The notes: generated from the letters alone by a model not told the origin. A stretch of DNA of 64,000 nt from Candidatus Nomurabacteria bacterium (GCA_943354905.1 CALRDL010000002.1:6478-70477); one strand, 5' to 3'. Numbered from the stretch's first letter, positions 960 through 41,465 are shown. Translations and numbers: made by a program.

Positions 960-1640
960 ATGGAAGAAACAATTATAATTTCGCTTGGAGGGTCTATGAT
1001 AATTCCAGAAGAAATAGATGTAGATTTTTTGCGTGAATTTAAATCCTTAATTCTTTCGCACGTAGCCAAAGGTAAAAAGTTTGTGATTATTTGTGGAGGA
1101 GGGAAAATAGCTCGCAAATATCAGGCAGTTGCGAAAATTTTAACTGAACCAAAGGATATAGATCTGGATTGGATCGGTATTGCATCTCTGAAATTAAATG
1201 CCGAACTTTTAAGAGTGATTTTTGGAGAATATGCTCACGACGTAGTAGTTTCAGACTTAAGAAATCCTATTATTTTTAATAAACCAGTGTTAGTGGGTTC
1301 TGCTCATCAACCGGGATGGAGCTCTGATATGGATACTGTTTGGGCGGCACAAACAGTTGGTGCAAAGAAATTAATTAATCTTTCCAACGTAGACCATGTT
1401 TACGATGCTGATCCCAGAATAAATCCAAATGCTAAAAAACTAGAGAATATTTCATGGGCTGATTATAGAAAAATTATTCCTAAAGAATGGACATCCGGAT
1501 TAAATTCTCCGTTCGACCCAATAGCATCCGAGCTTGCTCAAAAAGAGGGGATAAGTGTGATGATAATGAACGGCAAGCCACTCGACAATCTCAAGAATTA
1601 TCTAAACGGCGAAAAGTTTGAGGGAACAATAATTTCGTAA
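960..1640 (+). CDS. Amino-acid-kinase-fold protein, probably UMP kinase (archaeal-type PyrH-like)
   Basis: Carries IISLGGSM and ICGGGKIARKY glycine-rich motifs typical of the carbamate/UMP kinase fold. Its position next to adk supports a nucleotide kinase. Confidence 0.5.
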   Translation: MEETIIISLGGSMIIPEEIDVDFLREFKSLILSHVAKGKKFVIICGGGKIARKYQAVAKILTEPKDIDLDWIGIASLKLNAELLRVIFGEYAHDVVVSDLRNPIIFNKPVLVGSAHQPGWSSDMDTVWAAQTVGAKKLINLSNVDHVYDADPRINPNAKKLENISWADYRKIIPKEWTSGLNSPFDPIASELAQKEGISVMIMNGKPLDNLKNYLNGEKFEGTIIS

Positions 1641-1653
1641 GTTTTAAAATTTT

Positions 1654-2442
1654 ATGATTATCATAAAAACAAAAGAAGAAATAGAAATCCTTCGCGAAGG
1701 GGGGAGGAGGTTGGCGACTGTGCTTCAAAAATTGAAAGCCAAAGTTGCTTCTGGAATTTCTACTAAAGAACTCGACCTTTATGCAGAGAAATTAATTCGT
1801 GATGGTGGAGACGAGCCAGCTTTTTTGAATTATCGTCCCAGTGGAGCTAAGTCTCCATTTCCGGCGTCGCTTTGCGTATCTGTAAATGATGAAGTCGTTC
1901 ATGGGATTCCAAATAAAAATAAAATTTTAAAAGAAGGGGATATTGTTTCACTGGATTTAGGGATTAAACACAGAGGGTTGTTTACAGATAGTGCGATCAC
2001 TGTTCCTGTCGGGAATATTTCTTCAGGATCAGAGAAATTATTAGAAGTTACCGAGAGAGCTTTGTATGTCGGGATCGAGTCGGCTATAGCTGGAAATACA
2101 ACAGGGGATATCGGTTATGCCATCGAACAATTTGTACATTCTCGACCAGATAAAAATAAAAATCAGCAATATGGGATTGTTGAAGTTTTGGCTGGGCATG
2201 GAGTGGGGAAATATATTCACGAAGATCCATATATTCCGAATTTTGGGAAAAAAGGTAAAGGCGAAAAACTCGTTCCCGGAATGGTAGTCGCTCTCGAACC
2301 AATGTTAAACAACGGCACGAAGAATGTCACCATCGATGACGACGAATGGACTTTCCGTACAGCTGACGGCAAAAGAAGCGCGCACTTTGAACACACTATA
2401 CTTATCACTGAAAGCGAGGCCCAGATATTAACAAAAGTTTGA
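1654..2442 (+). CDS. map: Methionine aminopeptidase type I
   Basis: 262 aa with the pita-bread fold signatures: IKTKEEIEILREGGR, metal-ligand context HGIPN, D..DLG, and the C-terminal HFEHTI. Confidence 0.85.
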   Translation: MIIIKTKEEIEILREGGRRLATVLQKLKAKVASGISTKELDLYAEKLIRDGGDEPAFLNYRPSGAKSPFPASLCVSVNDEVVHGIPNKNKILKEGDIVSLDLGIKHRGLFTDSAITVPVGNISSGSEKLLEVTERALYVGIESAIAGNTTGDIGYAIEQFVHSRPDKNKNQQYGIVEVLAGHGVGKYIHEDPYIPNFGKKGKGEKLVPGMVVALEPMLNNGTKNVTIDDDEWTFRTADGKRSAHFEHTILITESEAQILTKV

Positions 2443-2527
2443 TTTAGTGGTAATATTATATAAAGAAATTTATGCTACAAAAAACTATAAAATCAGTGAT
2501 TAAAATTTCTTTTAATTAAAATAGTAT

Positions 2528-3514
2528 ATGGAAAATTTTTTACCAGATACAGCTCCAGTGTTATCTAAAAATAGTAGTAATTTGGAAAATAAAGAACAGG
2601 AATTTATTTATGAGTTAAGAGATGTTGAGGGCGGCGTCCGATGTAATATTAAAGTAACATTCATTAATGAAACTTTGCCTGAGTCTTTACAAGGCAGAAA
2701 TTGCAAGGTCTTGAAAAGAGTGTTGAGGATGTCTTTCGAGGGAGCTAAGTCAGTTGATATTTTTGCTTTATGTAAAAAATCTGAAGCAACTAAAGTTTTT
2801 TTTACTGATGATGATTACCGTTATGAACATACAACTGATGAAGTATTTATTCCTGAATTTAAAACCTTGATTGATTTATATATTGCCTTTCATGAAATTG
2901 GTCATGCTGTTCAGTACAAAGAAGATATATTTAAAAATGCATGCAGGCATGGAAAATTTTTAGATATTGAAAATTTTGCACCAGCTGTTTTGTTGGCGCG
3001 AGAGAAACGAGTTGCAATTCCTATGGCTGATGAATTCTTGAATGAACTTATGCAATACTCAGTTGAGTATAATAGATATTGTCAAAGAAATATAGATGGT
3101 TCTTTAACAGAAGATGACCATATAGGATGTGAAAGTGAAAATATAAAGTTTACAGATTTTTTAAAAGAACATGAAATTAAAGAAAGTTTAGTTTCATTGA
3201 TATCTTATGAGTTGCCAAGAAGTATCTTTGAGCGAGACGCTACATTAAGGGCAATGGTTTGGGTACGCAAGGCTTCACAAGAATTGCATATTTCTTTAAA
3301 TTTTAAAACTAAAAGAAGTGATGTTGTTGTTCTCGATGAGATGTCTAAAGAATTAACTAAATGCTTAGAAGAAGATGATGTTCCTGAAGAGGTACAGGAA
3401 GCTATTTTAAGAGTTTGTGGAATGGGAAATGTTGGAGTCAGAGAAGTGATGAACTTAGCGTTATTAACTCAAGAGTCTGATAAATCTGTTCATAAATTTT
3501 TTAATGATAAATAG
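2528..3514 (+). CDS. Hypothetical protein with an HExxH motif (possible zincin-like metallopeptidase)
   Basis: Only an FHEIGHAVQY motif is recognisable; there are no other family signatures. Confidence 0.3.
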   Translation: MENFLPDTAPVLSKNSSNLENKEQEFIYELRDVEGGVRCNIKVTFINETLPESLQGRNCKVLKRVLRMSFEGAKSVDIFALCKKSEATKVFFTDDDYRYEHTTDEVFIPEFKTLIDLYIAFHEIGHAVQYKEDIFKNACRHGKFLDIENFAPAVLLAREKRVAIPMADEFLNELMQYSVEYNRYCQRNIDGSLTEDDHIGCESENIKFTDFLKEHEIKESLVSLISYELPRSIFERDATLRAMVWVRKASQELHISLNFKTKRSDVVVLDEMSKELTKCLEEDDVPEEVQEAILRVCGMGNVGVREVMNLALLTQESDKSVHKFFNDK

Positions 3515-3586
3515 TTTTATAACAGAACTTACGCTCTCCCACAAAATAATACAAACATAATACCACATTTTTGTTAAATTTAGTTT

Positions 3587-3614
3587 GACAAAGTTTTTAC
3601 ATTGTATATACTGG
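3587..3614 (+). promoter_or_regulatory. Near-consensus sigma70-type promoter (TTGACA-N16-TATACT) upstream of the toxin-antitoxin pair
   Basis: The sequence tagtTTGACAaagtttttacattgtaTATACTgggtatt sits directly 5' of the 3602 ORF start. Confidence 0.4.
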
Positions 3615-3895
3615 GTATTATGAATACAATGATTACAATTCGGACAGATGCAGATTTAAAAAATCAAGCACAAAACCTTGCTGAAAGGTTAGGTATTTCT
3701 ATTTCTGCAATAGTAAATAATTCTTTAAGAGAATTTGTTCTTAATAAGAAAGTTGTTTTCGCTGAACCTTTGACTTTAAATATTGCTACAAGAAAGCGTT
3801 TAGATAAAATAATTAAAGAAATAGATAAGGGAAAAAATCTTTCTAAATCTTTTTATACAGCAAAAGATGCTATAGCACATCTGAAAAGTCTATAA
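3602..3895 (+). CDS. Type II antitoxin, DinJ/RelB-like (ribbon-helix-helix)
   Basis: The N-terminus ITIRTDADLKNQAQNLAERLGISISAIVNNSLREFV is RHH/DinJ-like. It lies immediately upstream of a RelE/YafQ-like toxin. Confidence 0.6.
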   Translation: MYILGIMNTMITIRTDADLKNQAQNLAERLGISISAIVNNSLREFVLNKKVVFAEPLTLNIATRKRLDKIIKEIDKGKNLSKSFYTAKDAIAHLKSL

Positions 3896-3901
3896 AATTA
3901 A

Positions 3902-4159
3902 ATGAAGATCAATTTTCATAAAAGTTTTGATAAGATGTTTGCGAAATTACCAAAATTTGTTAAAGAAAAGTTTTACATTAGACTTGAAATTTTCTCCCTC
4001 AATATCAATAATCCATTATTAAATATTCATCCACTAAAAGGTAAACGGAGAGGGCAATGGAGTATAAATATAACAGGGGATTGCAGAGCTTTATACATAG
4101 AGCAAGAAGATGGGGTGATTTTTTTAGAAATCGGCACGCATCCACAATTATATGAATAA
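3902..4159 (+). CDS. Type II toxin, RelE/YafQ (ParE superfamily) mRNA interferase
   Basis: 85 aa with HPLKGKRRGQWSINITGDCRALY, the conserved core of YafQ/RelE toxins. It sits 6 bp after the antitoxin gene. Confidence 0.65.
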   Translation: MKINFHKSFDKMFAKLPKFVKEKFYIRLEIFSLNINNPLLNIHPLKGKRRGQWSINITGDCRALYIEQEDGVIFLEIGTHPQLYE

Positions 4160-4365
4160 ATTTGAATACTTTTTAGCCACACTATTTTGATTAGAGAAGG
4201 AGAGGTGGAGATTTTGACGAAGATATAAAATATGAAATTTCATTCGATTGAAGATTTGAGAAATGGCTAATATCTAGTGTTTATGGAAATTATTCGACAT
4301 CCTGATATCATTAAAGATTTTAAAAAATTAGATAGAAATCCCTCACCCATGCTACAATATCTTAG

Positions 4366-7131
4366 ATGGATAAATCTTTTTTAAAAGATATGCCTAAGTT
4401 TAAGACTCCTGAAGAGGAGCTGGATTATCTGCGTGCCCATGTCGCCAAGCGTGAAGAAGAACTCATCAAGATAGGGCATATAGAACACGCTAAAGACAAC
4501 GCTACCATAGATGTGATTGAAGAATACAAAGATGCTCCGATAGAAAATGTAATCGAGGAGAGTCATAGACTTGACTCGAAACAAACAGAAGGTATAGTGT
4601 TAGCTCTCAAGCCCGAGAGTCATGACATTATTATGGAAGAGCTTTTAGGGCTAGTCATTACGAAGGGCATAAAGAATGCTTTGTCGGTTGTAGAAAATAT
4701 GGATAGTCCTCATATAGAAGATGATTTTCATAGAATACTTATTCAATATTTAAAAACAGGGCAAATAAATTTTCAATTTAAAGAAGGGACACCAATGTAC
4801 AAATCTTTAAATATGACTTTGTTTGAGATCACTCTTCCACCGCCTACGGATGAAATAGACAAGTCGAAAGGTTTTAAAGAATTTATCGGGGCAATGGAAC
4901 AATTTTATGCAGGAATGCATTCTATTTCGCAAGGCAAAAATAACAAAGAAGAAAATTATTTTACACTCGAGATTGCCCTGAGCGATGAGAGTGATGAAGT
5001 CATAATCTACGCTAGTATTCCAAACAAACACATCACCCTTTTTGAAAAACAGATTTTAGCATTTTATCACAATGCCAAAGTTAGCGAAGTTCCGGATGAC
5101 TACAACATCTTCAACGAGCAAGGCGCATCCGTGGGTGCTTATGCATCTTTTGCTGAACGAGGAGTTATGCCGATCAAGACTTATGACAACATCGAACACG
5201 ATCCGATGAACACTATCTTAAATGTTTTTTCTAAATTAAAAACCAAAGGTGAGGGTGCGGGGATTCAGCTCGTGATAGCTCCTGCTGGAGATCAGTTTAT
5301 AAATGAATTTCACAAAATTTTAGATGATGTAAAGGATGGACTTTCTGTAAAAAATGCTTCTGATAATTTTTATAAATTCAATAGTGCTTTTATGAAGATA
5401 GGCAAAGAATTCATATTTGGAACAAAAAAAGCACCAGAAGAAAATAAGGAACGAAATATGAAGGGCAGGAGAGCTGTAGACGAAGGAGCAGTGGAGAAAA
5501 TAGGTAATAAGACAAAGAGCACGATCATGAAGGCAAATATTCGGGTGGTGGCTTCAGCCGAAACAAAATCTCGAGCAGAAGAGATCTTGAAAGAACTGGA
5601 ATCTTCTTTTCATCAATTTTCTGAACCTGCTAGCAATTCTTTCTTTTTCGAACAAGCTCATGGTAGCAATTTGAAAAAGTTTTTTCATGATTTCTCATAT
5701 CGTTCTTTTTCACCTGATAAAATATTGCCGATGAATTTGAAAGAACTTTCTTCAGTTTTTCATTTTCCAGTAGGCATAGGTAGCCAGCCCCAACTCAAAG
5801 AAGCAAAGGCTGGCATCGCTCCGGCACCACTTGAGATGGGCCACGATGGAGTAACTCTTGGCATAAATGATTATCGAGGTAAAAAAACAGAAGTAAAACT
5901 CGCTCGTGAAGACCGTATGCGACATTTTTATGTTATTGGTCAGACTGGTACTGGTAAAACAAATATAATGTTGAATATGATAACTCAAGATATTAAAAAT
6001 GGAGATGGATGTTGTTATATAGATCCACACGGGACAGATATTCAAACCATCCTTTCTCGTATTCCAAAAGAGCGTATCGATGATGTCATATACTTTGATC
6101 CAGCATATACTGCGCGTCCTATGGGGCTGAATATGCTCGAGTATGATCTAAGATATCCAGAACAAAAGACTTTTGTGGTCAATGAACTCATGGGTATTTT
6201 TAATAAACTTTTTGATATGAAAGCCGGAGGTGGAGCTATGTTTGAACAATATTTCAGAAATAGTGCTTTCTTGGTGATGGAAGATCCAGAATCTGGCTCG
6301 ACATTGCTCGAGATCACTCGAGTTCTCGCTGATAAAGAATTTCGTGATATGAAACTCCAGAAATGCAAGAATCCGATCATTAAACAATTTTGGGTTTCAG
6401 CCGAACAGACGACAGGGGATCAAAGTCTCGCCAACTTCGTGCCATACATTTCTTCAAAGTTCGATAACTTTATCAGCAATGACATCATGCGTCCGGTTGT
6501 TCTCCAGCAAAATTCTGTTTTTAATTTTAGAAAAATAATGGACGAAAAGAAAATTCTTTTGGTAAATCTTTCCAAGGGTCGTCTCGGGGATATCAATGCG
6601 AACTTGATCGGCTTAGTCCTTGTCGGCAAGATCCAGATGGCGGCGCTTTCTCGCGTTGATATGTTTGGGAAACATATGAATGATTTCTATTTATATATCG
6701 ACGAGTTTCAAAACGTTACCACTGATTCTATCGCTTCTATTTTATCTGAAGCACGCAAATATAGACTTTCGCTTAATATTGCTCATCAATACATCTCTCA
6801 GCTTGAAGACAATATTAAAAATGCAGTTTTTGGAAATGTCGGCTCGATCGCAGTATTTCGTGTTGGGACCGAAGATGCGACTTTTCTCGAGCCAAAATTT
6901 AAACCTCAATTTACTGCTTCTGATATTACTAAATTAGACAATTTCAATGCTTATATGAGTATGCTGATCAAAGGTCAACCGACTAAGCCGTTTAATATTG
7001 CGACCATCGCTCCAGAAAAGGGTAATCCCGAAATAGTAGATAATCTCAAAGAACTTTCGTATGTAAAATATGGTCGTGATCGAGCCGAAGTCGAAGCCGA
7101 AATCATGGCGAAGTATCAGACGATGGAGTAA
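4366..7131 (+). CDS. Large P-loop ATPase of the FtsK/HerA/TraG-VirD4 (DUF87/AAA_10-like) superfamily
   Basis: 921 aa. Walker A is HFYVIGQTGTGKTNIM at about aa 520 and Walker B is FYLYIDEFQNV. The ~500-aa N-terminal soluble region has no recognisable motif. Confidence 0.5.
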   Translation: MDKSFLKDMPKFKTPEEELDYLRAHVAKREEELIKIGHIEHAKDNATIDVIEEYKDAPIENVIEESHRLDSKQTEGIVLALKPESHDIIMEELLGLVITKGIKNALSVVENMDSPHIEDDFHRILIQYLKTGQINFQFKEGTPMYKSLNMTLFEITLPPPTDEIDKSKGFKEFIGAMEQFYAGMHSISQGKNNKEENYFTLEIALSDESDEVIIYASIPNKHITLFEKQILAFYHNAKVSEVPDDYNIFNEQGASVGAYASFAERGVMPIKTYDNIEHDPMNTILNVFSKLKTKGEGAGIQLVIAPAGDQFINEFHKILDDVKDGLSVKNASDNFYKFNSAFMKIGKEFIFGTKKAPEENKERNMKGRRAVDEGAVEKIGNKTKSTIMKANIRVVASAETKSRAEEILKELESSFHQFSEPASNSFFFEQAHGSNLKKFFHDFSYRSFSPDKILPMNLKELSSVFHFPVGIGSQPQLKEAKAGIAPAPLEMGHDGVTLGINDYRGKKTEVKLAREDRMRHFYVIGQTGTGKTNIMLNMITQDIKNGDGCCYIDPHGTDIQTILSRIPKERIDDVIYFDPAYTARPMGLNMLEYDLRYPEQKTFVVNELMGIFNKLFDMKAGGGAMFEQYFRNSAFLVMEDPESGSTLLEITRVLADKEFRDMKLQKCKNPIIKQFWVSAEQTTGDQSLANFVPYISSKFDNFISNDIMRPVVLQQNSVFNFRKIMDEKKILLVNLSKGRLGDINANLIGLVLVGKIQMAALSRVDMFGKHMNDFYLYIDEFQNVTTDSIASILSEARKYRLSLNIAHQYISQLEDNIKNAVFGNVGSIAVFRVGTEDATFLEPKFKPQFTASDITKLDNFNAYMSMLIKGQPTKPFNIATIAPEKGNPEIVDNLKELSYVKYGRDRAEVEAEIMAKYQTME

Positions 7132-12110: not shown

Positions 12111-13475
12111 ATGCAGAATAATGTAAAGATAACTTTTTGTGGAGGAACCGGCTCAGTAACTGGAGCCAATTTTTTATTGGAAATAGATGGCAAAAAAATC
12201 TTGATAGATTGTGGACTTACTCAAGGTAACAAGATCGCTGACGATACAAACTGGGATCCTTTTATCTATGATGCGAAAACCATAGATATACTTTTTATAA
12301 CTCATGCTCATATAGATCATTTAGGTAGAGTGCCAAAACTAATCCATGAAGGTTTTGTGGGGAAAATATATTCTACCGTACCTACCAAATCTCTAGCTCT
12401 GCCTATGCTCGAAGATACCGCTGGAATATTATCCAAAAATACTGAACTCAAATTAGACGAAGTATATTCAGCTGAGAATATAAAAACTTCTCTTTCCTTG
12501 TGGCAGGGCTTTGACTATCATGAGAATTTACAAATCACTCCGGAGTTAGAAGTATCATTTTATAATGCTGGGCACATTCTCGGCTCAGCTATGATTTTAT
12601 TTGTATATAAAGGCAAAAAGATTCTTTTCACTGGAGATCTAGGGAATAGCCCTTCTCCACTTTTGCCAGATACTGAAAAAGTTCCTAATGTTGATTATCT
12701 AATCATGGAGTCTGTGTATGGCGACAGGAATCACGAATCTAGAGACGAACGACGCAAGTTTTTAGAAGAAGTTATAGAAGATAATTATAAGCGAAAGGGT
12801 ACTCTGATCATTCCTACATTTTCTCTCGAACGTTCCCAAGAACTTCTCTTTGAATTAAATTCTTTAGTAGAAGGAAATAGAATTCCTGTTATGCCTATCT
12901 TTTTAGATTCACCACTCGCTATCCGCCTAACAGAAGTTTTCAAGAAACACAAAGATTATTTCAACGAACAAGCTCAAAAGGCTATGTCGAGTGATAAATA
13001 TTTATTTAATTTCCCTGGTCTTCGACATACTCTAAAATCAGAAGAGTCAAAAATGATTAGAAGCGTCCCGAATCCCAAGATAGTCATTGCTGGGAGCGGT
13101 ATGTCGACTGGCGGACGAGTGGTCCATCATGAAAGGCATTATTTGCCTGACCCGAACAACACTCTACTTCTTGCGGGGTATCAATCTGTAGGCACTCCAG
13201 GACGCTTGATTCAAGAAGGATTGAAGACCATACGCATCACGGGGGAAGAGGTAGAAGTCAGAGCGCATATTGTAAATATTTTTGGATATTCCGGACACAA
13301 AGATTCCAACGGTCTCTTAAATTTTGTAGAAGATATGCAAGAAACACTCAAAAAAGTTTTTGTAGTGATGGGAGAGCCAAAGAGCTCTATGTTCCTTGTT
13401 CAAAAATTGCGTGACAATCTGGCCATCGATGCTGTCGCTCCGGAGCAAGGGAGTAGTGTGGAATTAGATTTTTAA
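12111..13475 (+). CDS. Beta-CASP MBL-fold ribonuclease (RNase J/CPSF73-like)
   Basis: Metallo-beta-lactamase motif 2 is FITHAHIDHLG. The 454-aa length and the distal beta-CASP-type GHSGH-like region (FGYSGHKD) fit the family. Confidence 0.6.
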   Translation: MQNNVKITFCGGTGSVTGANFLLEIDGKKILIDCGLTQGNKIADDTNWDPFIYDAKTIDILFITHAHIDHLGRVPKLIHEGFVGKIYSTVPTKSLALPMLEDTAGILSKNTELKLDEVYSAENIKTSLSLWQGFDYHENLQITPELEVSFYNAGHILGSAMILFVYKGKKILFTGDLGNSPSPLLPDTEKVPNVDYLIMESVYGDRNHESRDERRKFLEEVIEDNYKRKGTLIIPTFSLERSQELLFELNSLVEGNRIPVMPIFLDSPLAIRLTEVFKKHKDYFNEQAQKAMSSDKYLFNFPGLRHTLKSEESKMIRSVPNPKIVIAGSGMSTGGRVVHHERHYLPDPNNTLLLAGYQSVGTPGRLIQEGLKTIRITGEEVEVRAHIVNIFGYSGHKDSNGLLNFVEDMQETLKKVFVVMGEPKSSMFLVQKLRDNLAIDAVAPEQGSSVELDF

Positions 13476-14748: not shown

Positions 14749-15279
14749 TTATCTCTTCTCTATTGTTGTTGTTAAACCCTTCGGACCTTTTTTGTATGCG
14801 TCTGATATTTTATAATCTTCGGTGATCAAATGTAAAATTCTATCCAAGCGTTCTTTTAAAAACTTTTCATCCATATATTTGGCGCGCCCAGCTAGGAAAA
14901 GTTCTACCTTGATTCTGTGTCCTTCCTTGAGCCATTTGGATGCAGTTTTGGCTTTGAGCTCTAGGTCGTGGTCTCCGGTGCCTATCTTGATCTGGATACC
15001 TTTGGTTTCTGTCGCCTTGGCTCCACCTTTTTGTTTCTTTAATTTTTTACTGGCTTCGTATTTATACTTACCGAAATCCATTATTTTTGCGAGTGGGGGA
15101 GTTGCGTTTGGGCTTATTTCTATCAAGTCCAAACCCTGATTTTGAGCCATTTCCAAGGCATCTCTAATACTTAAAACACCGATATTTTTGTTTTCGCTGT
15201 CCAAAACCCGAAGTTCTCCTGCCCGTATTTGGTTGTTTATTCTTTCACGCAATTGATAAATAGAACCAAAACCAGCCAA
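14749..15279 (-). CDS. infC: Translation initiation factor IF-3
   Basis: Contains INNQIRAGELRVLDSENKNIGVLSIRDALEMAQNQGLDLIEISPNATPP and heads the conserved infC-rpmI-rplT operon. Confidence 0.85.
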   Translation of the reverse strand: MAGFGSIYQLRERINNQIRAGELRVLDSENKNIGVLSIRDALEMAQNQGLDLIEISPNATPPLAKIMDFGKYKYEASKKLKKQKGGAKATETKGIQIKIGTGDHDLELKAKTASKWLKEGHRIKVELFLAGRAKYMDEKFLKERLDRILHLITEDYKISDAYKKGPKGLTTTIEKR

Positions 15280-16453: not shown

Positions 16454-16803
16454 TAGGTTATTGCTATGATGCTGACTTACTAACTTAAAATTATCCCATA
16501 CCCGTGCTCTTGAATTAGCTTCATCAAAAAATGAAACGTCTTCTTTCTGTAGTTTTAAAGTTCAACTTATCACAGAACTCAAGCATCATATCTTGAATAA
16601 ATTGCCAAGCTTGTCCTTTGAAAGAGCTGACATCAAAATCTTTCATATAGTTTTCAGACATAACAATAAAAGCTAGCTGATAATGGCTATCATGGGAAGC
16701 ACAGAACCCCACGCCAGCTAGGTCTTACGACCCTTTTATAAACGTTAAACCTTATACATTATAACACTAATTAAAAATAATGAAGAAATGAGTCACAGAT
16801 CAT

Positions 16804-17088
16804 TTACTCGTCGACAGATTTAGATAATTTTGTTGGAATATTTTTACTATACAAACTTATCAACTTTTCTTTTTTATCTCTACGCCATTTTTTAATTTGA
16901 ATTTCTCTTTTTCTTGCTTCTGCTAAAGAATGGTGATTTTCTAAAAACACAATTTTAAATTCATCGCAGTTTTTGGTAAAATCTGCACCTTGTTTTGTAT
17001 TATGTTCTTTCAATCTTCGTTCTGGATTATCTGTAATACCTATATATAAATTTCCGTATGAATTTTTAATCATGTATACGAAATACAT
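16804..17088 (-). CDS. GIY-YIG nuclease-family protein
   Basis: YFVYMIKNSYGNLYIGITDNPERRLKEHN is the canonical GIY-(10)-YIG motif followed by R..EH. Confidence 0.7.
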   Translation of the reverse strand: MYFVYMIKNSYGNLYIGITDNPERRLKEHNTKQGADFTKNCDEFKIVFLENHHSLAEARKREIQIKKWRRDKKEKLISLYSKNIPTKLSKSVDE

Positions 17089-17252
17089 ATATAGATTTTA
17101 ACATAAATCGATCCAAAATACGCCCATTCGAGTCCTCGCTTTGCTCGTCCCTCAGGGCACTCGCCTCAAAACAAAAAACATTCTTTGAAGAATGTTTTTT
17201 GTTTTCCGCTGTGGCTTGCCACGAGCGAGTTTTGCCTTAAGCAAAACGAGTC

Positions 17253-17647
17253 GAGTGGAACTGACGAGAATTGAACTCGTGTGCAATAGGTTTTTGTAAA
17301 GAAGTCTACATACATAGCATGCTTTTCTGTTTAAATTAAAATATTCTTAAGCAAGCGAAATATATTTTAATCGAGCTCTAAGTTTTTGTGAAATGCTCGA
17401 GCAAACATTTCCTTATCCCGATAATATTACACCTCTACTCATATATCGGAAGTCTATAAGAGAGACGCCAGCTCAGGCTTACGCGAAAGCTGGAGCGAAA
17501 GCAAAATCATTCATACCGAAGTATGGTGACGCTTTAGCCTTAGAAGTCAATTTTGCAATTAACATTTAGACAAATTTTTACGAGATTATGTCTATGCTCG
17601 ATACGCATCTTTGACAAATAGGCCTACTGTCTATGCCTTGCAGTCCC
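17253..17647 (-). ncRNA. ssrA: Candidate tmRNA (ssrA)
   Basis: On the minus strand the 5' GGGACTG pairs with the 3' CAGTTCC to give a 7-bp acceptor stem with a G3:U70 wobble, the Ala identity element. The T-arm is ACGAG-TTCAATT-CTCGT followed directly by CAGTTCC-A. The gene lies immediately downstream of smpB. An internal ORF ends ...NDFAFAPAFA-TAA, a Mycoplasma-like tag ending. Terminator-like hairpins follow at 17174-17205 and 17228-17248. Confidence 0.55.
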
Positions 17648-17660
17648 AGGTATTTTATTT

Positions 17661-18107
17661 TCAACGTCCTTTGTATTCTCTTCTGATCTCGCGATCCGTG
17701 TCGCGCTTTTTTATGCTCTCGCGCTTATCAAATTTCTTTTTGCCTTTTACTAAAGCAATTTGTATCTTGATTTTCCTACCCTTATTATACACTGAAATAG
17801 GCACTATTGTCAAACTCTTATTTTTCTCACTCCCAACCAATTCTGTATTTTCTTTTTTGGTTAATAAAAGTTTTCTGTTGCGAAGTGGGTCATAATCTTT
17901 CGGCGCATTTTTTACTTGGTATGGAGGAATATTTGAGTTGATTAAAAAGGCTTCTCCTCCTCGCACAATAACAAAAGCTCCCTCGAGAGACATTTGTCCA
18001 CCGCGGACAGACTTTACTTCCGTACCCAAAAGCTCAATACCTGCTTCGTACTTTTCCAAGATTTGATAATCAAATCTAGCTTTTCGGTTTTCTGTGTAAT
18101 TTGCCAT
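17661..18107 (-). CDS. smpB: SsrA-binding protein SmpB
   Basis: Contains NRKARFDYQILEKYEAGIELLGTEVKS...GAFV...Y...LLL, typical of SmpB. Confidence 0.9.
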   Translation of the reverse strand: MANYTENRKARFDYQILEKYEAGIELLGTEVKSVRGGQMSLEGAFVIVRGGEAFLINSNIPPYQVKNAPKDYDPLRNRKLLLTKKENTELVGSEKNKSLTIVPISVYNKGRKIKIQIALVKGKKKFDKRESIKKRDTDREIRREYKGR

Positions 18108-18171
18108 GATTTTAATCTTACCATAGATTCCGTGACTGTTTATTTTAGATTTTTTATGTTAATCTTTATTT

Positions 18172-29868: not shown

Positions 29869-31386
29869 ATGACTACACAAAAAGAAATAGAAAAACAAGA
29901 AGAATTAAACAAAGTCCTATGGGATTCAGCAAATTCTTCCCGTAGTCAGCTTAACGCTGCAGATTATATGGGCTATGTTTTACCCATGCTTTTTTTAAAG
30001 TATCTAAGTGATAAATCAAAACAAGCACACGAAGAATACAAAAAACGTTTTGGATCTGATGAAAAGCGTGTTGAAGAAAAAATGAAGCTTGACCGATTCT
30101 TTCTTCCTAAAAAAGCTTCATTTGATTATATCTATTCTATTATAGAGCAAGATAATTTGGGAGAAGAAATAAATAAAGCTCTTGAGCGAATAGAAGATGC
30201 AAACAAAGAAAAGCTTGAGGGTGTATTTAGTGTAGATTTCAATTCTGAGTCATCGCTTGGAAAATTAAATGAAAGAAATAAAATGTTGCGGAACCTTGTT
30301 AATGATTTTGCAAAAATTGACCTCTCAGAAGTGAAAGACGACATTATTGGTAATTCATATATGTATCTTATTGAACGCTTTGGGGCTGACGCAGGAAAAA
30401 AAGCGGGAGAATTTTTCACCGTGAGAAATGTCGCACACTTAGTGGCAAAACTTGCTGAGCCAAAATCGGGAGCTCGTATATGCGACCCTTGTTGCGGATC
30501 CGGCGGGCTACTTTTACTCGCAGGAGAAGAGGTAGAAAAACAAGGTTCAACAAATTATGCTCTCTATGGGCAAGAATCAACAGGTTCCACATATCAGCTT
30601 GCTCGAATGAATATGTTTCTTCATGGAAAAGATTCTGCTCGTCTTGAATGGGGTGATACTTTAAATAATCCTCTGCTTGTAGAAAATGACCACCTTATGA
30701 AGTTTGATAATATCGTAGCGAACCCACCTTTTTCTCTTAAGAAATGGGGTGCTGAACACGCTGATGCAGATAAATATAAAAGATTTTGGAGAGGTGTTCC
30801 ACCAAAAGATAAAGGAGACTTTGCATTTATTACCCACATGATAGAAACAGCCAAGCCAAAGACGGGACGCATTGCTGTTATTGTTCCTCATGGTGTACTT
30901 TTCCGCTCTGGCGCGGAAGGTAAAATCCGTGAGCAATTAATCAAAGAAAATATTATTGATGCTGTTATTGGACTTCCTGCGGGATTATTTCAAACTACTG
31001 GTATCCCTGTCGCTATTCTTGTAATAGATAGGTCAAGAGAAAAAGGTGGAGCAAATGAAAACAAAAAAGATATTTTCTTTATAGAGGCCTCAAAAGAATT
31101 CAAGGCAAACAAAGCTCAAAATATTCTAGCCGAAGAAAATATTGAAAAGATTTATTCCACATACAAGAAAAGAAAAGATGTAGAGAAATTTGCTCGGAGT
31201 GTAAAGTTTTCAGAGCTTGAAGAAAATGATTTTAATTTGAACATCACTCGCTATGTAGATACTTTTATAGAAGAAGAACCAGTGAACATAAAAGCAAACT
31301 TAAAAGAGCTTGCGGAATTAGAACCACAGCTTCAAAAATTGGAAAAACAAATGGTCGCGTATTTAAAGGAATTAGGGGTTAAATAA
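29869..31386 (+). CDS. hsdM: Type I R-M N6-adenine DNA methyltransferase subunit M
   Basis: HsdM N-domain, AdoMet motif CDPCCGSGG, and catalytic motif IVANPPFS. Confidence 0.85.
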   Translation: MTTQKEIEKQEELNKVLWDSANSSRSQLNAADYMGYVLPMLFLKYLSDKSKQAHEEYKKRFGSDEKRVEEKMKLDRFFLPKKASFDYIYSIIEQDNLGEEINKALERIEDANKEKLEGVFSVDFNSESSLGKLNERNKMLRNLVNDFAKIDLSEVKDDIIGNSYMYLIERFGADAGKKAGEFFTVRNVAHLVAKLAEPKSGARICDPCCGSGGLLLLAGEEVEKQGSTNYALYGQESTGSTYQLARMNMFLHGKDSARLEWGDTLNNPLLVENDHLMKFDNIVANPPFSLKKWGAEHADADKYKRFWRGVPPKDKGDFAFITHMIETAKPKTGRIAVIVPHGVLFRSGAEGKIREQLIKENIIDAVIGLPAGLFQTTGIPVAILVIDRSREKGGANENKKDIFFIEASKEFKANKAQNILAEENIEKIYSTYKKRKDVEKFARSVKFSELEENDFNLNITRYVDTFIEEEPVNIKANLKELAELEPQLQKLEKQMVAYLKELGVK

Positions 31387-31439
31387 AATTATTAATCAAT
31401 TTGTCGATGTCGGCAAATGATAATTAAAAAATTAATTAT

Positions 31440-32261
31440 ATGAAAACATCAATTTTTGAAGAATTAAAAAAGATAAATGAATATGGACAAGAATATTGGA
31501 GTGCTCGAAAGCTTGGGGAAGTTTTGGGATATTCAGAATATCGTTTTTTTATTCCAGTTATAGAGAAAGCAAAAAAAGCGTGTGAAAATAGCGGTTTTTT
31601 GCCACCCGACCATTTCGAGGATGTCCACGGTATGGTTCCCATAGGTTCTGGTGCGGAACGTCAAATTTCTGATACAAACATGTCTAGATATGCTTGTTAC
31701 CTAGTTGTTCAGAGTGCTGATTCTTCAAAAGTGATTGTAGGAAAAGCAAAATCATATTTTGCAATTCAAACCCGTAGACAAGAAACTCAAGACCAACTTT
31801 TAGATGATAGCAAGCGAGTTATGCTTCGTGGTGAAATGACAGAACATAATAAAAAACTTGCGAGTGCTGCAAAATCTGCGGGTGTTTTCAATTATGCTAA
31901 TTTTCAAGATGCTGGATATATAGGACTTTATGGCGGACTTCGTCAAAAAGATATTCATGCTCGAAAAAAATTAAATGAAAAACAAAGTATTCTTGATCAT
32001 ATGGGGAGTGAAGAATTAGCTGCGAATTTATTCCGAGCAACTCAAACAGAAGCAAAACTTCGTCGTGAAAATATTCGTGGTCAAGGATTAGCAAGTACTG
32101 CCCATCAAGAGGTCGGTGCAAAAGTTCGGAAAACTATTATTGAATTGGGTGGCACAATGCCTGAAAACCTGCCAACAGAGGAAAGTATTAGAGAGCCGAA
32201 AAAGAGACTGAAGGCAGTAAATAGAAAATTATTAAAAGGTAGTAAAAAGAAAGATAAATAA
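31440..32261 (+). CDS. DinD-like (DNA-damage-inducible protein D family) protein
   Basis: Contains YGQEYWSARKLGEVLGY...HFEDV..MV.IGSGAERQI.D...SRYACYL...YFAIQTRRQE, matching remembered E. coli DinD. Confidence 0.5.
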   Translation: MKTSIFEELKKINEYGQEYWSARKLGEVLGYSEYRFFIPVIEKAKKACENSGFLPPDHFEDVHGMVPIGSGAERQISDTNMSRYACYLVVQSADSSKVIVGKAKSYFAIQTRRQETQDQLLDDSKRVMLRGEMTEHNKKLASAAKSAGVFNYANFQDAGYIGLYGGLRQKDIHARKKLNEKQSILDHMGSEELAANLFRATQTEAKLRRENIRGQGLASTAHQEVGAKVRKTIIELGGTMPENLPTEESIREPKKRLKAVNRKLLKGSKKKDK

Positions 32262-32342
32262 ATTATCCACAACCATATCGTCCCATACGGACAAAATGGT
32301 CAAAACAGTCGAATTTAAAAGAATTAAGGGTTAAATAAATAT

Positions 32343-32972
32343 ATGAAACAAGAATATACACCACCAGCATATAAAGAAACAGCATTTAATTGTCCATTTT
32401 GTAATGCTTACGCTAATCAATTTTGGGATAGTCTCGCTAAGGTTGAACGTGCAAAATGGCATTATAGTGATGTTGATGGATGTGTGTGTACTCGTTGTGG
32501 TCATGAATCAATTTGGTTTAAAAATATAATGGTCTATCCTTCTTTTGAAGGAGTTCAGCCCCCAAATCAGGATTTAAGCGAAGATATTCAATTTGATTAT
32601 CAGGAAGCGGCATCGATACTTCAAAAATCGCCTCGTGGAGCGGCGGCTCTCCTTCGTCTTGCTATTCAAAAGTTATGTAAAGAGTTCGGAGAAGAAGGAA
32701 AAAACATTAACACTGACATAAAAAATCTTGTTGCAAAAGGTTTACCATCAGCCGTTCAAAAATCCCTTGATATTGTCCGAGTTATTGGAAACGACGCTGT
32801 TCACCCTGGGCAAATAGATATTAGTGATGATATCGAAACAGCAAAAGCATTATTTAAACTTGTTAATTTAATTGCTGAAAAAATAATAACAGAGAAAAAA
32901 GAGGTCGAAGAAATTTATAATAGTTTGCCTGAATCAAAGCGACAAGAAATTGAAAAGCGTGATTCTAAATAA
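32343..32972 (+). CDS. DUF4145-domain protein (frequent companion of type I R-M loci) with an N-terminal CxxC zinc-ribbon
   Basis: Contains AAALLRLAIQKL...LD.VRVIGNDAVH and an N-terminal CPFC...CTRC. Confidence 0.5.
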   Translation: MKQEYTPPAYKETAFNCPFCNAYANQFWDSLAKVERAKWHYSDVDGCVCTRCGHESIWFKNIMVYPSFEGVQPPNQDLSEDIQFDYQEAASILQKSPRGAAALLRLAIQKLCKEFGEEGKNINTDIKNLVAKGLPSAVQKSLDIVRVIGNDAVHPGQIDISDDIETAKALFKLVNLIAEKIITEKKEVEEIYNSLPESKRQEIEKRDSK

Positions 32973-33789
32973 AAATATGAACACTTTAAAAGAAAGATGG
33001 AGAATGTTTGGTAGTGTGGCTCTTGGTCCTGGGGCAATAATCTTTTCTTTGCTCACTGTAGGAAGTTTAATTGTTGCGTATATTTTTAACACCAACCTAC
33101 TGTTCTCTACACTCCTGACTATTCTTGCCAGTTTTTTTGCAAGTTTTGCCGGTAGTTTTATAAAAGACGACTATGACAAGATAGCAGGCCAAAATGTCTT
33201 GGAGAAAAAAGGTAGATCTGCTCTTCGTACCTTAGAATCATTAAATCGCCAAGTAAAAAGGATTTGTTCTTATGTTAGAGAAGAAATAGATAATAATAAA
33301 AAACCAAATCAGCATTTTTTGGTAGAAATAAATAGGCATATGTTTTCCATGGAAGACAGTATCGCTTCTAGTGTTGAAGATTGGGTGGATGTTATTCCCG
33401 AACTTGCTCAAACTATGGAAGAAATAAGAAAAATTAATAAGTTGTCTTTTGAAATTGAAGACTTAAAACAGAAAGAGCAAGAACACCAGAAAAATGAAGA
33501 AGATGGTGCTAAAAAAGAGGGTGAGTTAAGAAAAATAATTGAAGAGAAAGAATCGAGCTTAAGAGAATTACGACAAAAAAGAAGCATGTCAAATAATACT
33601 GTACTATTTAATCCTTCTATTATTTCTAACGGTGGGTCACCGTTTGCTTATCCAAACCAAGTTTTTCTTTCGTCTCCTTGTGCTAATTGCGGAAATCCAA
33701 TTGATCTCAGTTCTCCAATTTTGAGACTAAATTCAAGTCTTTGCCATAACTGTCAGGGCGCTGGAGGGCTTTATGCTAGAGCTTCATAA
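32950..33789 (+). CDS. Membrane-anchored coiled-coil protein (hypothetical) inside the hsd locus
   Basis: Two N-terminal TM helices, a charged coiled-coil middle region, and a C-terminal CANCG...CHNC. Confidence 0.3.
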   Translation: MKSVILNKNMNTLKERWRMFGSVALGPGAIIFSLLTVGSLIVAYIFNTNLLFSTLLTILASFFASFAGSFIKDDYDKIAGQNVLEKKGRSALRTLESLNRQVKRICSYVREEIDNNKKPNQHFLVEINRHMFSMEDSIASSVEDWVDVIPELAQTMEEIRKINKLSFEIEDLKQKEQEHQKNEEDGAKKEGELRKIIEEKESSLRELRQKRSMSNNTVLFNPSIISNGGSPFAYPNQVFLSSPCANCGNPIDLSSPILRLNSSLCHNCQGAGGLYARAS

Positions 33790-35050
33790 AAGTAAAATGA
33801 AACCTAACCAATCACAAAAAAATATTTCAAAAGAATGGCAAACAAGAAAACTAGACAGTATGTTTACCGTGCGTCGAGGTGGGTCACCAAGACCAATTGA
33901 AAGTTATATTACAAATAGAGCTGATGGGTTAAACTGGCTTAAAATTGGCGATATTGACGTTGGTGCAAAATATATTACGAAAACTAGTAGTAAAATCTTA
34001 AAAGAAGGATTATCTAGAACAACACTGGTCAAAAAAGGAGATTTTATACTTTCTAATTCCATGAGTTTTGGAAGACCATATATTATGGGTATAGATTCGT
34101 GTATTCACGACGGCTGGCTAACTTTTCAAGATATTAAAACTAATATTTTAGATCGTGATTTTTTATATTATCTACTTTCACAATCAAAAACCCAAGCAAT
34201 ATTTACATCAATTTCTGCTGGTTCTGGTGTTCAAAATTTAAAAAAAGAAACTGTTTCTGGTGTTGTATTATCAATTCCTCCTCTCCCTGAGCAAAACCGC
34301 ATCGTTGCAGTGCTTGAAACTTGGGACAAGGCGATTGAAAATTTAAATAAGAAAATTGAAATTAAAAAACAAATTAAAAAAGGTTTGATGCAGGATTTGT
34401 TGACTGGCAAAAAAAGATTAAGTGGATTTAAAGAAAAATGGGAAACAAAAACATTGGGAGATGTTTCTGATTTCATTAATGGCTATACCTTTAAAAGTGG
34501 AAATTATGTTGATGGAGGAAAGTATAAAATTATAACGATTGCTAATGTTCAAGATGGATTTATGTTTATTGACGAACCTAAAACCATTAATGAATTACCG
34601 GAAAATATAGGTAAGGAACAAATTTTAAAAAAGGGAGATATTTTAATATCTATGACGGGGAATGTTGGAAGAGTTTGTGTGGTCAATAGTGATAACTGTC
34701 TACTAAATCAAAGAGTTGGCAAAATTATGACTAAAGATATTAATAAGGAATTACTGTATTTATTTTTATACGATAGAAGGTTTCTATATCAAATGATTGG
34801 AAGTGCACAGGGTGGAGCACAAGCAAATTTATCAACCGAAGATATAAAAGAATATATTTTTGATCTTCCTAAAACAAAAGAAGAACAAAATGCTGTTGCT
34901 GAAATTTTAACTACTGCTGATAAGGAAATTACAGAGCTAGAAAAGAAATTATCAATTATAAAAGATCAGAAGAAGTTTTTATTAAACAATTTAATCACTG
35001 GGGCGATTCGAACTCCGGTGAATATGCAGTTGTACGGAAAAATCGTATAA
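33773..35050 (+). CDS. hsdS: Type I R-M specificity subunit, full length (two TRDs)
   Basis: 425 aa with two TRDs separated by the central conserved helix (PPLPEQNRI...) and the C-terminal repeat (LPKTKEEQNAVAEIL). Confidence 0.8.
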   Translation: MLELHKSKMKPNQSQKNISKEWQTRKLDSMFTVRRGGSPRPIESYITNRADGLNWLKIGDIDVGAKYITKTSSKILKEGLSRTTLVKKGDFILSNSMSFGRPYIMGIDSCIHDGWLTFQDIKTNILDRDFLYYLLSQSKTQAIFTSISAGSGVQNLKKETVSGVVLSIPPLPEQNRIVAVLETWDKAIENLNKKIEIKKQIKKGLMQDLLTGKKRLSGFKEKWETKTLGDVSDFINGYTFKSGNYVDGGKYKIITIANVQDGFMFIDEPKTINELPENIGKEQILKKGDILISMTGNVGRVCVVNSDNCLLNQRVGKIMTKDINKELLYLFLYDRRFLYQMIGSAQGGAQANLSTEDIKEYIFDLPKTKEEQNAVAEILTTADKEITELEKKLSIIKDQKKFLLNNLITGAIRTPVNMQLYGKIV

Positions 35051-35288
35051 CTGAAACATTATCAATTAAAGTTTAATTATGGCGAATATGCCACAAATAG
35101 AAATATGAAAAAGAAACAAACACAAGAAAAGAAAACGACTCCAAAAGAAGAAGAGTGGATGAAGCTATTTAGTGAGGTTACTGGAGCAGTGTTTGTTGAT
35201 GTAACACCAGAGAAATTATCACAAAGAAATTTTAAAGGAGTAAGGGTGTTAAATGGTCGTGTTGTAAATAAAAAGAAATTAAAATAAT

Positions 35289-38200
35289 ATGTTAGAAAAA
35301 GTAAATTTTGATGAGGCAAAGCAGTCGCAACTTCCATTCATAGAGTTGTTATTTAATATGGGCTATAAGTATATTTCGACAGATGAAGCCCTACGACAAC
35401 GTGGTGGTGATACAACAAACTTTATACTTTCTGATATTGCTGTGAAAAAATTGATGGAAATAAACGGCTATGAGGTTGATGAGGTTAAATATAAATTCAG
35501 TGAGAAAGATGTACGAGATGTGATAGACGAAATAGAGCATATTCAATATGAAGGGCTTATTGATACGGCGCAAAATATTTACAATATGATTATGCCGACT
35601 TCTGGAGGCAAGACTATCAAAGTAAGCCATGATGGCAAGCCGATTTCTAAAAACTTTAGATTTATAGATTTCAAAAATATTGAAAATAATAATTTTCATG
35701 TTACGGCTGAATTTACAGCTAGTGGAAAGCAAAATATCCGTCCTGATATTGTTTGTTTTATAAATGGTATTCCTTTTGCAATTATTGAGAATAAGAAAAA
35801 AAGTGTTTCTATCAAAGAAGCTATTGGGGATTTGATAAAAAAGCAAAGTCCTGAATATTGCCCTAAATTATATACTTATGCTCAACTTCTAGTGGCGACA
35901 AATGCTAGTGAATTACAATATGGAACGACTGGGACGTTAAATAAATTTTTTGCTGTTTGGAAAGAGAAAGGAAAAGATATAAAAGAAATAGACGCTCATA
36001 TCAAAGAAATAATGTCTAAACCTATTGATAAAGAAGTCTATTCTCAGATACTCACAGATCTTAATGGGTGGACAAAAGGACATACACAAAAGATAGATAG
36101 GGTTATTACGGGTCAAGACAGAGGTATTGTTTCATTATTTGAGCCGGAAAGACTTTTAGATTTAACTAAAAATCATATTCTTTTTGACGCAGGAGTAAAG
36201 AAAATTTCCCGCTATCAACAATATTTTGCTATTCGTAAGATGTTGAAGAGAATTGAGGAAGAGGAAATTGTAAATGAAGATACTACTCGCCGAAAGGGCG
36301 GGCTTGTTTGGCATACTCAAGGTTCTGGTAAATCTCTCACTATGGTTATGTTTGTGAAAGCTCTTATTGAAGACCCTAAGATTATTAATCCGAGAGTTAT
36401 TATTGTCACAGACAGACGCGACCTTGATAGACAAATTAGAGATACTTTCAAAAATTGTAATTTAAAAAAGGAAGTAGTGCAGGCTACAAGCGGGCAACAT
36501 TTACTCAATTTAATTAAAGAAAAGAATTTAGGCGTTATTACTACAATTATTGATAAATTTGAATCAGCAAGTAAAAAATATGCTAATTTTGTAGATAAAG
36601 ATAATAATATTTTTGTTTTAATTGACGAAGCTCACAGAAGTCAAAGTGGTATGGCAAATTTTGAAATGAATAGGATTATTCCCAATGCTTGTTATATAGG
36701 ATTTACGGGAACACCTTTAATGAGAAGTGAGGGAGAAAGCTGGAGAAAATTTGGCGGATATATTGATAAATATACGATAGATGATGCTCTTGCTGATAAA
36801 ATCATTCTACCTCTTATTTACGAGGGACGATATATAAATTTAGAACAAAATAAAACACAAATAGATAAACATATTGATCGTGTGTCAGAAGATATGAGCA
36901 GGAAATACAATGAAAATACAGTAAGTAATGAGCATAAAATAAAACTCCAAAAGCAAATTACAGCTGATATTCTAAAAAATAATCCACAAAGAATAGAAGA
37001 AATTGCTAGAGACATAGAAAAACACTTCACAGAACATTTCAAAGACACAGGACTCAAAGCTCAAATTGTTGCCCCATCAAAATATTCAGCTATCTTATTC
37101 CAAAACTTTTTTGAAAAGCGCGGAAATATAAATACTGCTGTGGTTATTTCTGACGAGCATGATGACGGCGATGAAGATAATACTCACAAAATAGAAGTAG
37201 TGAAGTATTTAGACAAAATTCGCAAAAATCACAGCAGTATTACGAAATACGAAAAAGATGTTATTGAAAGCTTCAAACATGGCGAAGGTGGAGTTGAAAT
37301 AATCATTGTGGTAGATAAACTCTTGACGGGCTTTGATGCTCCGAGAAATACTGTCTTATATCTTTCTAAAGATCTACATGACCACGGACTACTTCAAGCA
37401 ATTGCTCGTGTAAATAGACTTTTTGAAAATAATAAACTACCAAAGACGGCTGGATATATTATTGATTATTCAGAAAATGCTAAAAACATAGATACAGCTA
37501 TGAAGCTTTTCGGTAACTATGACGAAAATGATGTTAAAGGAACACTGATTGATGTATCAGAGAAAATAAATGAATTAGAACAGAGTTATGGTTTAATTCA
37601 TGACTTATTTAATGAAATAAAAAATTCGTCTGACGACGAAGTTTATTTGCAATTTCTTAAGGATGAAGCAAAAAGAGAAATGTTTTATAAAAGCTTAAAT
37701 GATTTTATAAGAAACTTAAATGAATGTTTTATTTTACAGGATTTTGTTCATGAATTCAAAGATAAGATAGGAATGTATAAAAAAGATTTAAAGAAATTTA
37801 TGGAAATCCGAAAATCAGCCAGTCTTCTTTATAGAGAAAGGGTGGATTTGTCAGAATATAAACAGTCATTGATTAAAATTCTTGATAAATATGTTGACGC
37901 CAAAGGAGTTGAATTGCTCACAAAACAAGTAAATATTACAGACAGGGAGCAATTTAAAGAAGCTGTTGAAAATCTTGGTTCTAATAAATCAAAAGCGGAA
38001 GCGATAGCCTCTCAAACACAAAGAACTATTAGCGAACAAATGTATAAAGATCCAGAATTTTTTGAAAGATTTTCAAAGAAGATAGAGGAAATCATAGAAA
38101 AAATGAGGTTGGGAAAATTAGCGGATATTGAAGCCCTAAAGCAAATGAGACTCATTAGTGACGATGTGCTCAATAAAAAAGGAGATGACTTGCCAAAGGA

Positions 38201-39213: not shown

Positions 39214-39214
39214 T

Positions 39215-39452
39215 TGAAGCCCACCCTCGCCCCATCGCCCATACCAAAAAAAAGAATTCCCCCCCCGCCAAACTAAAATAGAATGGAAATGCGATGGAGT
39301 GAGGGCAGACGACGAGCTTAAGCTCGTCGTGGCGGAATTGTTAGCGTTACCACATTAGTAGAGCGTGAAAAATAGTTTAGAAAAATAATAGTCGTAGAGC
39401 GTGAGATTAAGTATTTTGCTGGAAAAAAGTTCGTGCAAAGGTTAGGATTACT
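39215..39452. repeat. GC-rich repeat modules (homologous to 27317-27400 in inverted orientation) preceding the recombinase left inverted repeat
   Basis: The shared string is cctcgcccc..cccataccaaa...cccccgc..aaa...atggaaatg..tgg. Confidence 0.5.
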
Positions 39453-39591: not shown

Positions 39592-39620
39592 GTATTATCA
39601 GTTTTGAATCCAAAAGCAAT

Positions 39621-41423: not shown

Positions 41424-41465
41424 AAATTGGGAATCCGCATTTCTGGCGGGAATGCTTCACCCGAA

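Follow-up and report, generated by a model that had tools for sequence, protein, structure and literature searches.

The tmRNA is universal in bacteria, where it frees ribosomes that have stalled and labels the incomplete protein for degradation. Many annotation pipelines use ARAGORN for the identification of tmRNA genes. For a genome set of 2013, calls of BRUCE/ARAGORN were shown to overlap with 1983 of the ~2040 tmRNA genes known, and 97.5% of the calls were true positives (PMC4131195). The commonest arrangement of the tmRNA gene, ssrA, is next to smpB (PMC4131195). Its 3' end is a site into which genomic islands integrate (PMC4131195), and group I introns with homing endonucleases were identified in the tmRNA T-loop of Bacillota (PMC13011429). 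The tags of Mollicutes end in NYAFA (PMC9382460); they are read by Lon, and ClpXP is absent there (PMC9382460, PMC8403727). Here, the ssrA locus of a Candidatus Nomurabacteria bacterium is described and compared to these systems. The DNA analysed comprises 64,000 nucleotides (GCA_943354905.1 CALRDL010000002.1:6478-70477), referred to as the window, and all positions are counted from its first letter (Table 1).

Table 1. Features of the window at the ssrA locus and in its surroundings.
Feature	Position	Strand	Basis or remark
tmRNA (ssrA), one-piece	17256..17647	-	ARAGORN, RF00023, pairing, covariation
Acceptor stem, 5' strand GGGACUG	17641..17647	-	pairs with 17263-17257
Acceptor stem, 3' strand CAGUUCC	17257..17263	-	direct reading, pairing, covariation
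T-arm ACGAG-UUCAAUU-CUCGU	17264..17280	-	5 pairs
PK1, stem 1 CGAG/CUCG, stem 2 AGACA/UGUCU, just upstream of resume codon	17568..17600	-	both stems canonical
Tag reading frame, 25 codons, giving AKLTSKAKASPYFGMNDFAFAPAFA	17479..17556	-	ARAGORN; frame conserved in 80 relatives
Helix 5, GUAA loop holding the tag stop codon	17468..17493	-	8/8 pairs in window
PK2 (17467-17416), PK3 (17411-17375), PK4 (17372-17317)	17317..17467	-	pairing and covariation
smpB, tmRNA protein partner, 148 aa	17661..18107	-	Pfam PF01668, E 1.7e-51, profile 2-142 of 143
Sigma-70 site TTGACA-18-TATAAT within smpB coding sequence	17784..17813	-	12/12 match, consensus scan
3' trailer, conserved structured GIY-YIG leader	17089..17255	-	fold and comparison of cassettes
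A/U-rich 17-bp hairpin followed by U tract, third of three	17168..17205	-	MFE fold
GIY-YIG gene, 94 aa	16804..17088	-	E 1.2e-17
infC	14749-15279		on the downstream side of the smpB-ssrA module in the window
ftsH	18172-20094		divergent from smpB
Type I restriction-modification	hsdM 29869-31386, hsdS 33773-35050, hsdR 35289-38507		within 29869-43576
Large serine recombinase	39621-41198		3' end overlaps the tRNA(ACU) gene on the opposite strand
Fic-domain protein	42116-43576

For the region between smpB and the gene of a GIY-YIG protein, a tmRNA gene of about 395 nt had been proposed by an initial annotation, together with searches by ARAGORN and Rfam models. Both programs detected the gene. ARAGORN reported a tmRNA at 17255-17647(-) with the tag AKLTSKAKASPYFGMNDFAFAPAFA*, the sole tmRNA in the 64-kb window, and the Rfam model RF00023 matched 17253-17647(-) with 109.1 bits compared to a gathering score of 47 (E ~1e-41). 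The match covers positions 1-374 of the 374 positions of the model and is not truncated. The mature tmRNA comprises 392 nt up to the discriminator and 395 nt including CCA, as had been estimated, and starts 13 nt after smpB. The only ORFs of at least 50 aa in the gap are antisense and code for 58 and 94 aa.

Synteny and covariation led to the same assignment. A scan with SmpB, using one genome per species, yielded 80 loci (L001-L080) with SmpB proteins 79-89% identical, all of them from Candidatus Nomurabacteria, Paceibacterota or the Patescibacteria group, with some records labelled Saccharibacteria. Using nhmmer with a tmRNA profile built from the ARAGORN-called genes, a tmRNA homolog was identified directly after smpB, in the same orientation, in all 80 loci (E 1e-44 to 1e-128).

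The tRNA-like domain was read directly from the sequence and compared in an alignment of 71 sequences, consisting of the window and 70 relatives (alignment A1). The acceptor stem had been described before as 7 bp formed by GGGACTG at 17647-17641 and CAGTTCC at 17262-17256; the two strands and their pairing were recovered, with the 3' strand placed at 17263-17257, since the earlier position was one base too low. Its third pair, G17645:U17259, is the G3:U70 alanine identity pair that had been noted, and GU is invariant at this place (71/71 sequences). In 11 sequences, pairs 4 and 5 of the acceptor stem change together from GC/AU to AU/CG, the window carrying the minority form. Directly before the acceptor 3' strand, the predicted T-arm ACGAG-TTCAATT-CTCGT was read at 17280-17264; it is 100% paired in the clade, with compensatory changes in 4 of its 5 pairs. 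The discriminator is A17256 and the next bases are CTC, so that no CCA is encoded in the window, while CCA is encoded in about 16 of the relatives.

For the complete fold, a structure of 100 pairs was built by hand, comprising the acceptor stem, helices 2a, 2b and 2d, both stems of PK1-PK4, helix 5 and the T-arm. A structure obtained from RNAalifold only had recovered the acceptor stem, the T-arm, helix 5 and one stem per pseudoknot, with helix 2 mis-paired, and the hand-built structure was used instead. All but one of the 100 designed pairs are canonical in the window. Across the 71 sequences, 92.4% of the cells are paired compared to 36-51% after displacement of the 3' partners by 1-3 columns, and compensatory changes occur in 67 pairs compared to 17-29 after displacement. 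None of 500 shuffles attained the observed pairing and compensatory values. Compensatory changes were seen in every helix except stem 2 of PK2, which is invariant. For PK1, the pairing amounts to 98.6% in stem 1 and 96.9% in stem 2, with covariation in each of the 5 pairs of the latter. For PK2-PK4, all six stems are canonical in the window save one U-U mismatch in stem 2 of PK4; they are 87-100% paired in the clade, and 5 of the 6 show compensatory changes.

Several relatives contain additional nucleotides in the pseudoknot region, namely 45-50 nt in L018 (4073-4123), L039 (3016-3064) and L073 (~45 nt extra), and 10 nt in L035. The insertions of 45-50 nt are probably expansion hairpins, being too short for a group I intron.

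The tag reading frame starts with the resume codon GCA at 17556-17554, which is preceded by UAAUU, and terminates with the stop codon UAA at 17481-17479; both PK1 and the resume codon were found where the initial annotation had suggested looking for them, upstream of the tag. The frame GAT TTT GCT TTC GCT CCA GCT TTC GCG TAA (...FAFAPAFA) that had been read there ends at this stop codon. Among the 80 relatives, UAAUU precedes GCA in 79 and GUA in one. The tag stop codon is UAA in nearly all complete genes of the relatives and UAG in L062. Helix 5 shows covariation in all 6 outer pairs. A clade consensus of the tag was deduced as AKL[AT]SK.KA..SPYFGM[NK]DFAFA, followed by PAFA/PALA or by [SR]VSA[SLY]A. 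The clade tags consist of 25-29 residues, and the tag of the window, with 25 residues, ends in ...DFAFAPAFA. Nearly all tags of the 80 loci have a terminal Ala, preceded by F, L, S or Y; ALA, ASA, AYA or VLA ends were identified in relatives, and an AA end in none. For a distant lineage, the SmpB of which is 52% identical, the tag is ANKTVAPAFAFA.

The loop of helix 5 (17468-17493(-); columns 163-191 of A1) was observed in several forms. GUAA, which contains the stop codon, occurs with the short ...PAFA tags, and UUCG, UUUA or UUAC occur with tags extended to ...SVSA[SLY]A, where the stop codon lies further on. Since the loop alternates with the tag type, tag length and a stable tetraloop evolve together.

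The score of the model, the presence of a homolog in the same place in 80 of 80 related loci, and the covariation exclude a chance match. On these grounds, positions 17256-17647 are assigned, with a probability of about 0.95, as the functional one-piece ssrA of Candidatus Nomurabacteria (Patescibacteria), predicted to act in standard trans-translation. It would be highly improbable for the gene to be instead a decayed or mobile-element-borne copy, that is, a pseudogene or a fragment from island integration: ssrA is known as an integration hot spot at which gene fragments are left behind (PMC4131195), and a GIY-YIG gene cassette adjoins its 3' end in the window, but the untruncated match to RF00023, the almost complete set of canonical pairs, the intact tag frame and the constant position after smpB in all relatives contradict decay, as do the lack of a second 3'-end copy in the window and of a phage match. 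Phage origin had been considered using blastn of 17090-18110 against 50,697 phage records, which gave no match. Likewise, an island integration duplicating the ssrA 3' end was rejected, as the last 26 nt have no second copy in the window with up to 3 mismatches allowed. The functional ssrA assigned here is of the textbook one-piece type with four pseudoknots, ordinary, and a member of a well-known family. Its value is one of annotation only, since it completes ribosome rescue by SmpB and SsrA in a reduced Patescibacteria genome.

ARAGORN called the tmRNA in only 19 of the 80 relatives, and two calls had wrong tags and one a displaced resume codon. All 20 loci without an ARAGORN call that were tested with RF00023 gave 103-123 bits. 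The start of the T-loop is near-universally GTTC. In the clade (columns 399-415 of A1, 71 tmRNAs), 27 T-loops start with G-T-T-C, 35 with A-T-T-C, which implies an A53-U61 pair, and 9 with G-C-T-C. The calls of ARAGORN were distributed over these groups as 19/27, 0/35 and 0/9, respectively. As about three quarters of the clade tmRNAs are missed, MAG annotations based on ARAGORN would often report ssrA as missing.

Concerning the expression of ssrA, a sigma-70 site was identified within the smpB coding sequence, with the -10 box ending 136 nt before the tmRNA 5' end. The site matches the consensus at 12/12 positions in 71 of 81 loci and at 11/12 or more in 78 of 81. The codons carrying the hexamers are frozen at synonymous sites, with Leu encoded by TTG in 81/81, Thr by ACA in 76/81, Tyr by TAT in 78/81 and Asn by AAT in 80/81 loci, and the codons for Ile, Pro and Ser in the spacer vary freely at their third positions. 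Judged from this pattern, the TTGACA-18-TATAAT site in smpB is probably the promoter of ssrA, with conservation for another reason being possible in principle. A view in which ssrA lacks its own promoter and is transcribed solely by read-through from the smpB promoter, the site being kept for the protein sequence LTIVPISVYN, appears unlikely. The distance of just 13 nt between the smpB stop codon and the tmRNA 5' end and the highly conserved amino acids across the site would be in agreement with such read-through; however, a six-fold degenerate Leu encoded by TTG in every locus and Thr by ACA in most, next to varying third positions in the spacer, and the full consensus in 71 loci argue against this view.

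The smpB-ssrA module (window ~17255-18130) was found between infC and ftsH in every one of the loci L001-L080, in two orientations. Twenty-six loci are organized like the window, with ftsH divergent from smpB and infC downstream, and 47 have the module inverted. On a tree of the module, 20 parsimony changes in orientation were counted compared to a random mean of 21.1, and on a tree of FtsH (51 loci) 14 changes compared to a random mean of 17.1 and a minimum of 13; as both trees were built by simple neighbour joining, the numbers of inversion events are approximate. L055 and L067, which have the most similar FtsH proteins of the set (12.6% divergent), differ in orientation. On the ftsH side, the breakpoints are located a short distance upstream of the -10 box, and on the infC side next to the -35 box. 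A search for long inverted repeats flanking the module revealed none, with only short similarities among the -10 regions of smpB, ftsH and infC. The orientation thus carries almost no phylogenetic signal, which points to a recurrent inversion of the module, and a single ancient inversion can be regarded as excluded by this comparison of sequences.

For the region downstream of ssrA, two terminator hairpins had been noted in the initial annotation. Hairpins were indeed identified after the gene; the MFE fold of the trailer shows three of them (z = -5.4 compared to shuffles), of which only the third, at 17205-17168, is terminator-like. This hairpin was not called by a consensus scan because it has too few G-C pairs. 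In related cassettes, a hairpin of other sequence is present at its place. From the folding model, it is likely to be the intrinsic terminator of the smpB-ssrA transcript. The hairpins after ssrA are mostly part of the conserved leader of the GIY-YIG gene, and not of ssrA termination.

In the window, this leader consists of TCGACTC, hairpin 1 (17247-17229), the 21-mer TCGCTCGTGGCAAGCCACAGC (17228-17208), the terminator-like hairpin and GAGGCGAGTG. Hairpin 1 has 7 bp, all of which covary, and the 21-mer is exact in the window and in 5 of 6 cassette loci. The 3' part of the leader, after the variable terminator-like hairpin, reads GAGGCGAGTG...TCGAATGGGCATAT; in L013, L020 and L022, a promoter TTGA[A/G]C-17-TATAAT is predicted within this part, ~7 nt before the ATG. 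Further, CACTCGACTC and GAGKCGAGTG form an outer helix of 10 bp, which takes in the last three bases of ssrA; it is perfect in L081 and L100, with a compensatory change in L073. No Rfam family was assigned to the trailer, since a permissive search of 16500-17300 resulted in sub-threshold noise only.

Besides the window, only 6 of the 80 loci (L013, L020, L022, L041, L064, L073) contain the leader together with the GIY-YIG gene. The start of the cassette is constant, right after ...UCCAC, with ...CCAC joined to TCGACTC at the junction. The cassette has a size of ~450-550 bp, and the GIY-YIG ORF codes for 86-97 aa across the carriers. Scanning metagenomes for the exact 21-mer resulted in 22 contigs (L081-L102), at least 17 of which have a tmRNA directly upstream, including tmRNAs of 317-354 nt from lineages with SmpB proteins only 52-60% identical.

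Free-standing GIY-YIG homing endonucleases combine a catalytic with a DNA-binding domain, occur sporadically at one target site and cleave the empty site. Compared to these, the protein of the window has the catalytic domain, but it comprises 94 aa without an extra domain; the cassette is sporadic and occupies a single site. As with mobile DNA at ssrA, additional DNA with a gene of a nuclease family directly adjoins the 3' end of ssrA, and it does so in a minority of genomes only. Unlike such mobile DNA, the cassette lacks an integrase, an intron and a duplicated ssrA end, and its size is only ~450-550 bp. Clear horizontal mobility of the cassette was not supported, as its divergence largely tracks the host: the identity of the GIY-YIG proteins correlates with that of the tmRNAs (r = 0.76). 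It is therefore at least as probable that the cassette is old and was lost on many occasions as that it is mobile.

In the metagenome contig L087, ~3.9 kb (1274-5203) lie between ssrA and the GIY-YIG leader, ahead of which TTTCCAC is retained. This insert contains a match to LOOT RNA (RF03000, 83 bits, 1643-1763). It may be an island at the ssrA end.

A far-reaching, rather doubtful view would combine these features and treat the ssrA neighbourhood as a hot spot that is dynamic in two ways. The smpB-ssrA module of ~900 bp with its own promoters would be invertible, with at least 14 to 20 inversions between the divergent genes infC and ftsH, and possibly still switching in populations, by which read-through of the very strong ssrA promoter would be redirected to either essential operon. 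The undescribed structured element at the 3' end, with the 10-bp outer helix, three hairpins, the invariant 21-mer and the 94-aa GIY-YIG gene, would be a site-specific cassette that is either selfish or related to processing. If true, the embedded promoter, the recurrent inversion and the GIY-YIG leader would be of greater interest than the tmRNA itself.

Further features were observed elsewhere in the window. Just past ftsH, a tRNA-Ile with the anticodon UAU is encoded at 20587-20661 (+), which is conserved in most of L001-L080 and decodes AUA without a TilS-modified CAU tRNA. Two divergent type II tRNA genes are located at 41147-41233 (-) and 41334-41423 (+), one being tRNA-Ser(GCU) and the other having the anticodon ACU. 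Outside tRNA-Arg, A34 is rare in bacteria. The ACU tRNA scores 51.7 bits with the Rfam tRNA model and was missed by the gathering search of the whole window. The same divergent pair was identified in contig L087 at 12734-12821 (-) and 12903-12992 (+), and this conservation in a related metagenome contig makes it probable that the ACU tRNA gene is genuine. The G+C content increases up to 0.43 at 40-42 kb of the window. The region 29869-43576 may be an integrated element beside the tRNA-Ser genes.

For the functioning of ssrA, the following course is proposed. Transcription would start mainly from the embedded sigma-70 promoter (17813-17784) and/or proceed by read-through from smpB, after which RNase P would remove a leader of ~130 nt. 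At the 3' end, an endonuclease would cut after A17256, and a CCA-adding enzyme, needed because CCA is not encoded, would supply the CCA. AlaRS is predicted to charge the tmRNA by recognition of G3:U. Together with SmpB, the tmRNA would enter ribosomes stalled on non-stop mRNAs, and resumption of translation on GCA would append (A)AKLTSKAKASPYFGMNDFAFAPAFA. The hydrophobic A-x-A carboxyl end would then mark the product for an AAA+ protease.

As to the protease, a readout of the Lon or FtsH type is considered somewhat more likely than one by ClpXP, which is a guess made by analogy: as in Mollicutes, the clade tags end in A-[FLSY]-A and not in LAA of the ClpX type. That the tag is a degron for ClpXP and its likeness to Mollicutes superficial is the less probable option, yet one that carries some weight. 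In most bacteria, the tags are read mainly by ClpXP (PMC9382460, PMC8403727), and the terminal Ala of nearly all tags gives a small hydrophobic end like that of other ssrA tags; against this stand the absence of an AA end from the clade and the varied penultimate residue, both unlike the LAA read by ClpX. Neither Lon nor ClpX was found among the ORFs of at least 330 aa in the window, where FtsH is present; with 64 kb covered, the lack of ClpX is weak evidence against ClpXP. The literature on the protease content of Patescibacteria yielded nothing usable. With a Lon- or FtsH-type readout still slightly favoured, the clade consensus ending in A-x-A instead of LAA provides a concrete substrate for the question of which protease clears the tags in minimal cells.

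Compared to the tags of Mollicutes such as Mesoplasma florum and Mycoplasma pneumoniae, those of the clade are similarly long (25-29 residues compared to 27 in M. pneumoniae) and share an A-F-A carboxyl end, and small, A+T-rich genomes are found in both groups (PMC9382460, PMC8403727). The remainder of the clade tag, with its SPYFGM.DF core, is unrelated, and many relatives end in ALA, ASA or AYA. The Mycoplasma-like character proposed initially therefore holds for the length and the AFA end only, since the Mollicutes end in NYAFA and the clade has a consensus of its own. Because Nomurabacteria and Mollicutes are unrelated, the likeness is convergent at most.

A close correspondence is to the one-piece bacterial tmRNA (RF00023), for example E. 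coli SsrA with SmpB. Common to both are the tRNA-like domain with G3:U70 and T-arm, helix 2, PK1 ahead of a resume codon for Ala, a stop codon located in the helix 5 loop, PK2-PK4, and smpB as a neighbour. Unlike E. coli SsrA, the tag of the window has 25 instead of 11 residues and ends in AFA instead of LAA, CCA is not encoded, and a probable promoter is located inside smpB. A further difference concerns the clade, in which 44 of 71 T-loops start with the A53-U61 pair or have C54 instead of starting with G-T-T-C, the T-loop of the window being canonical.
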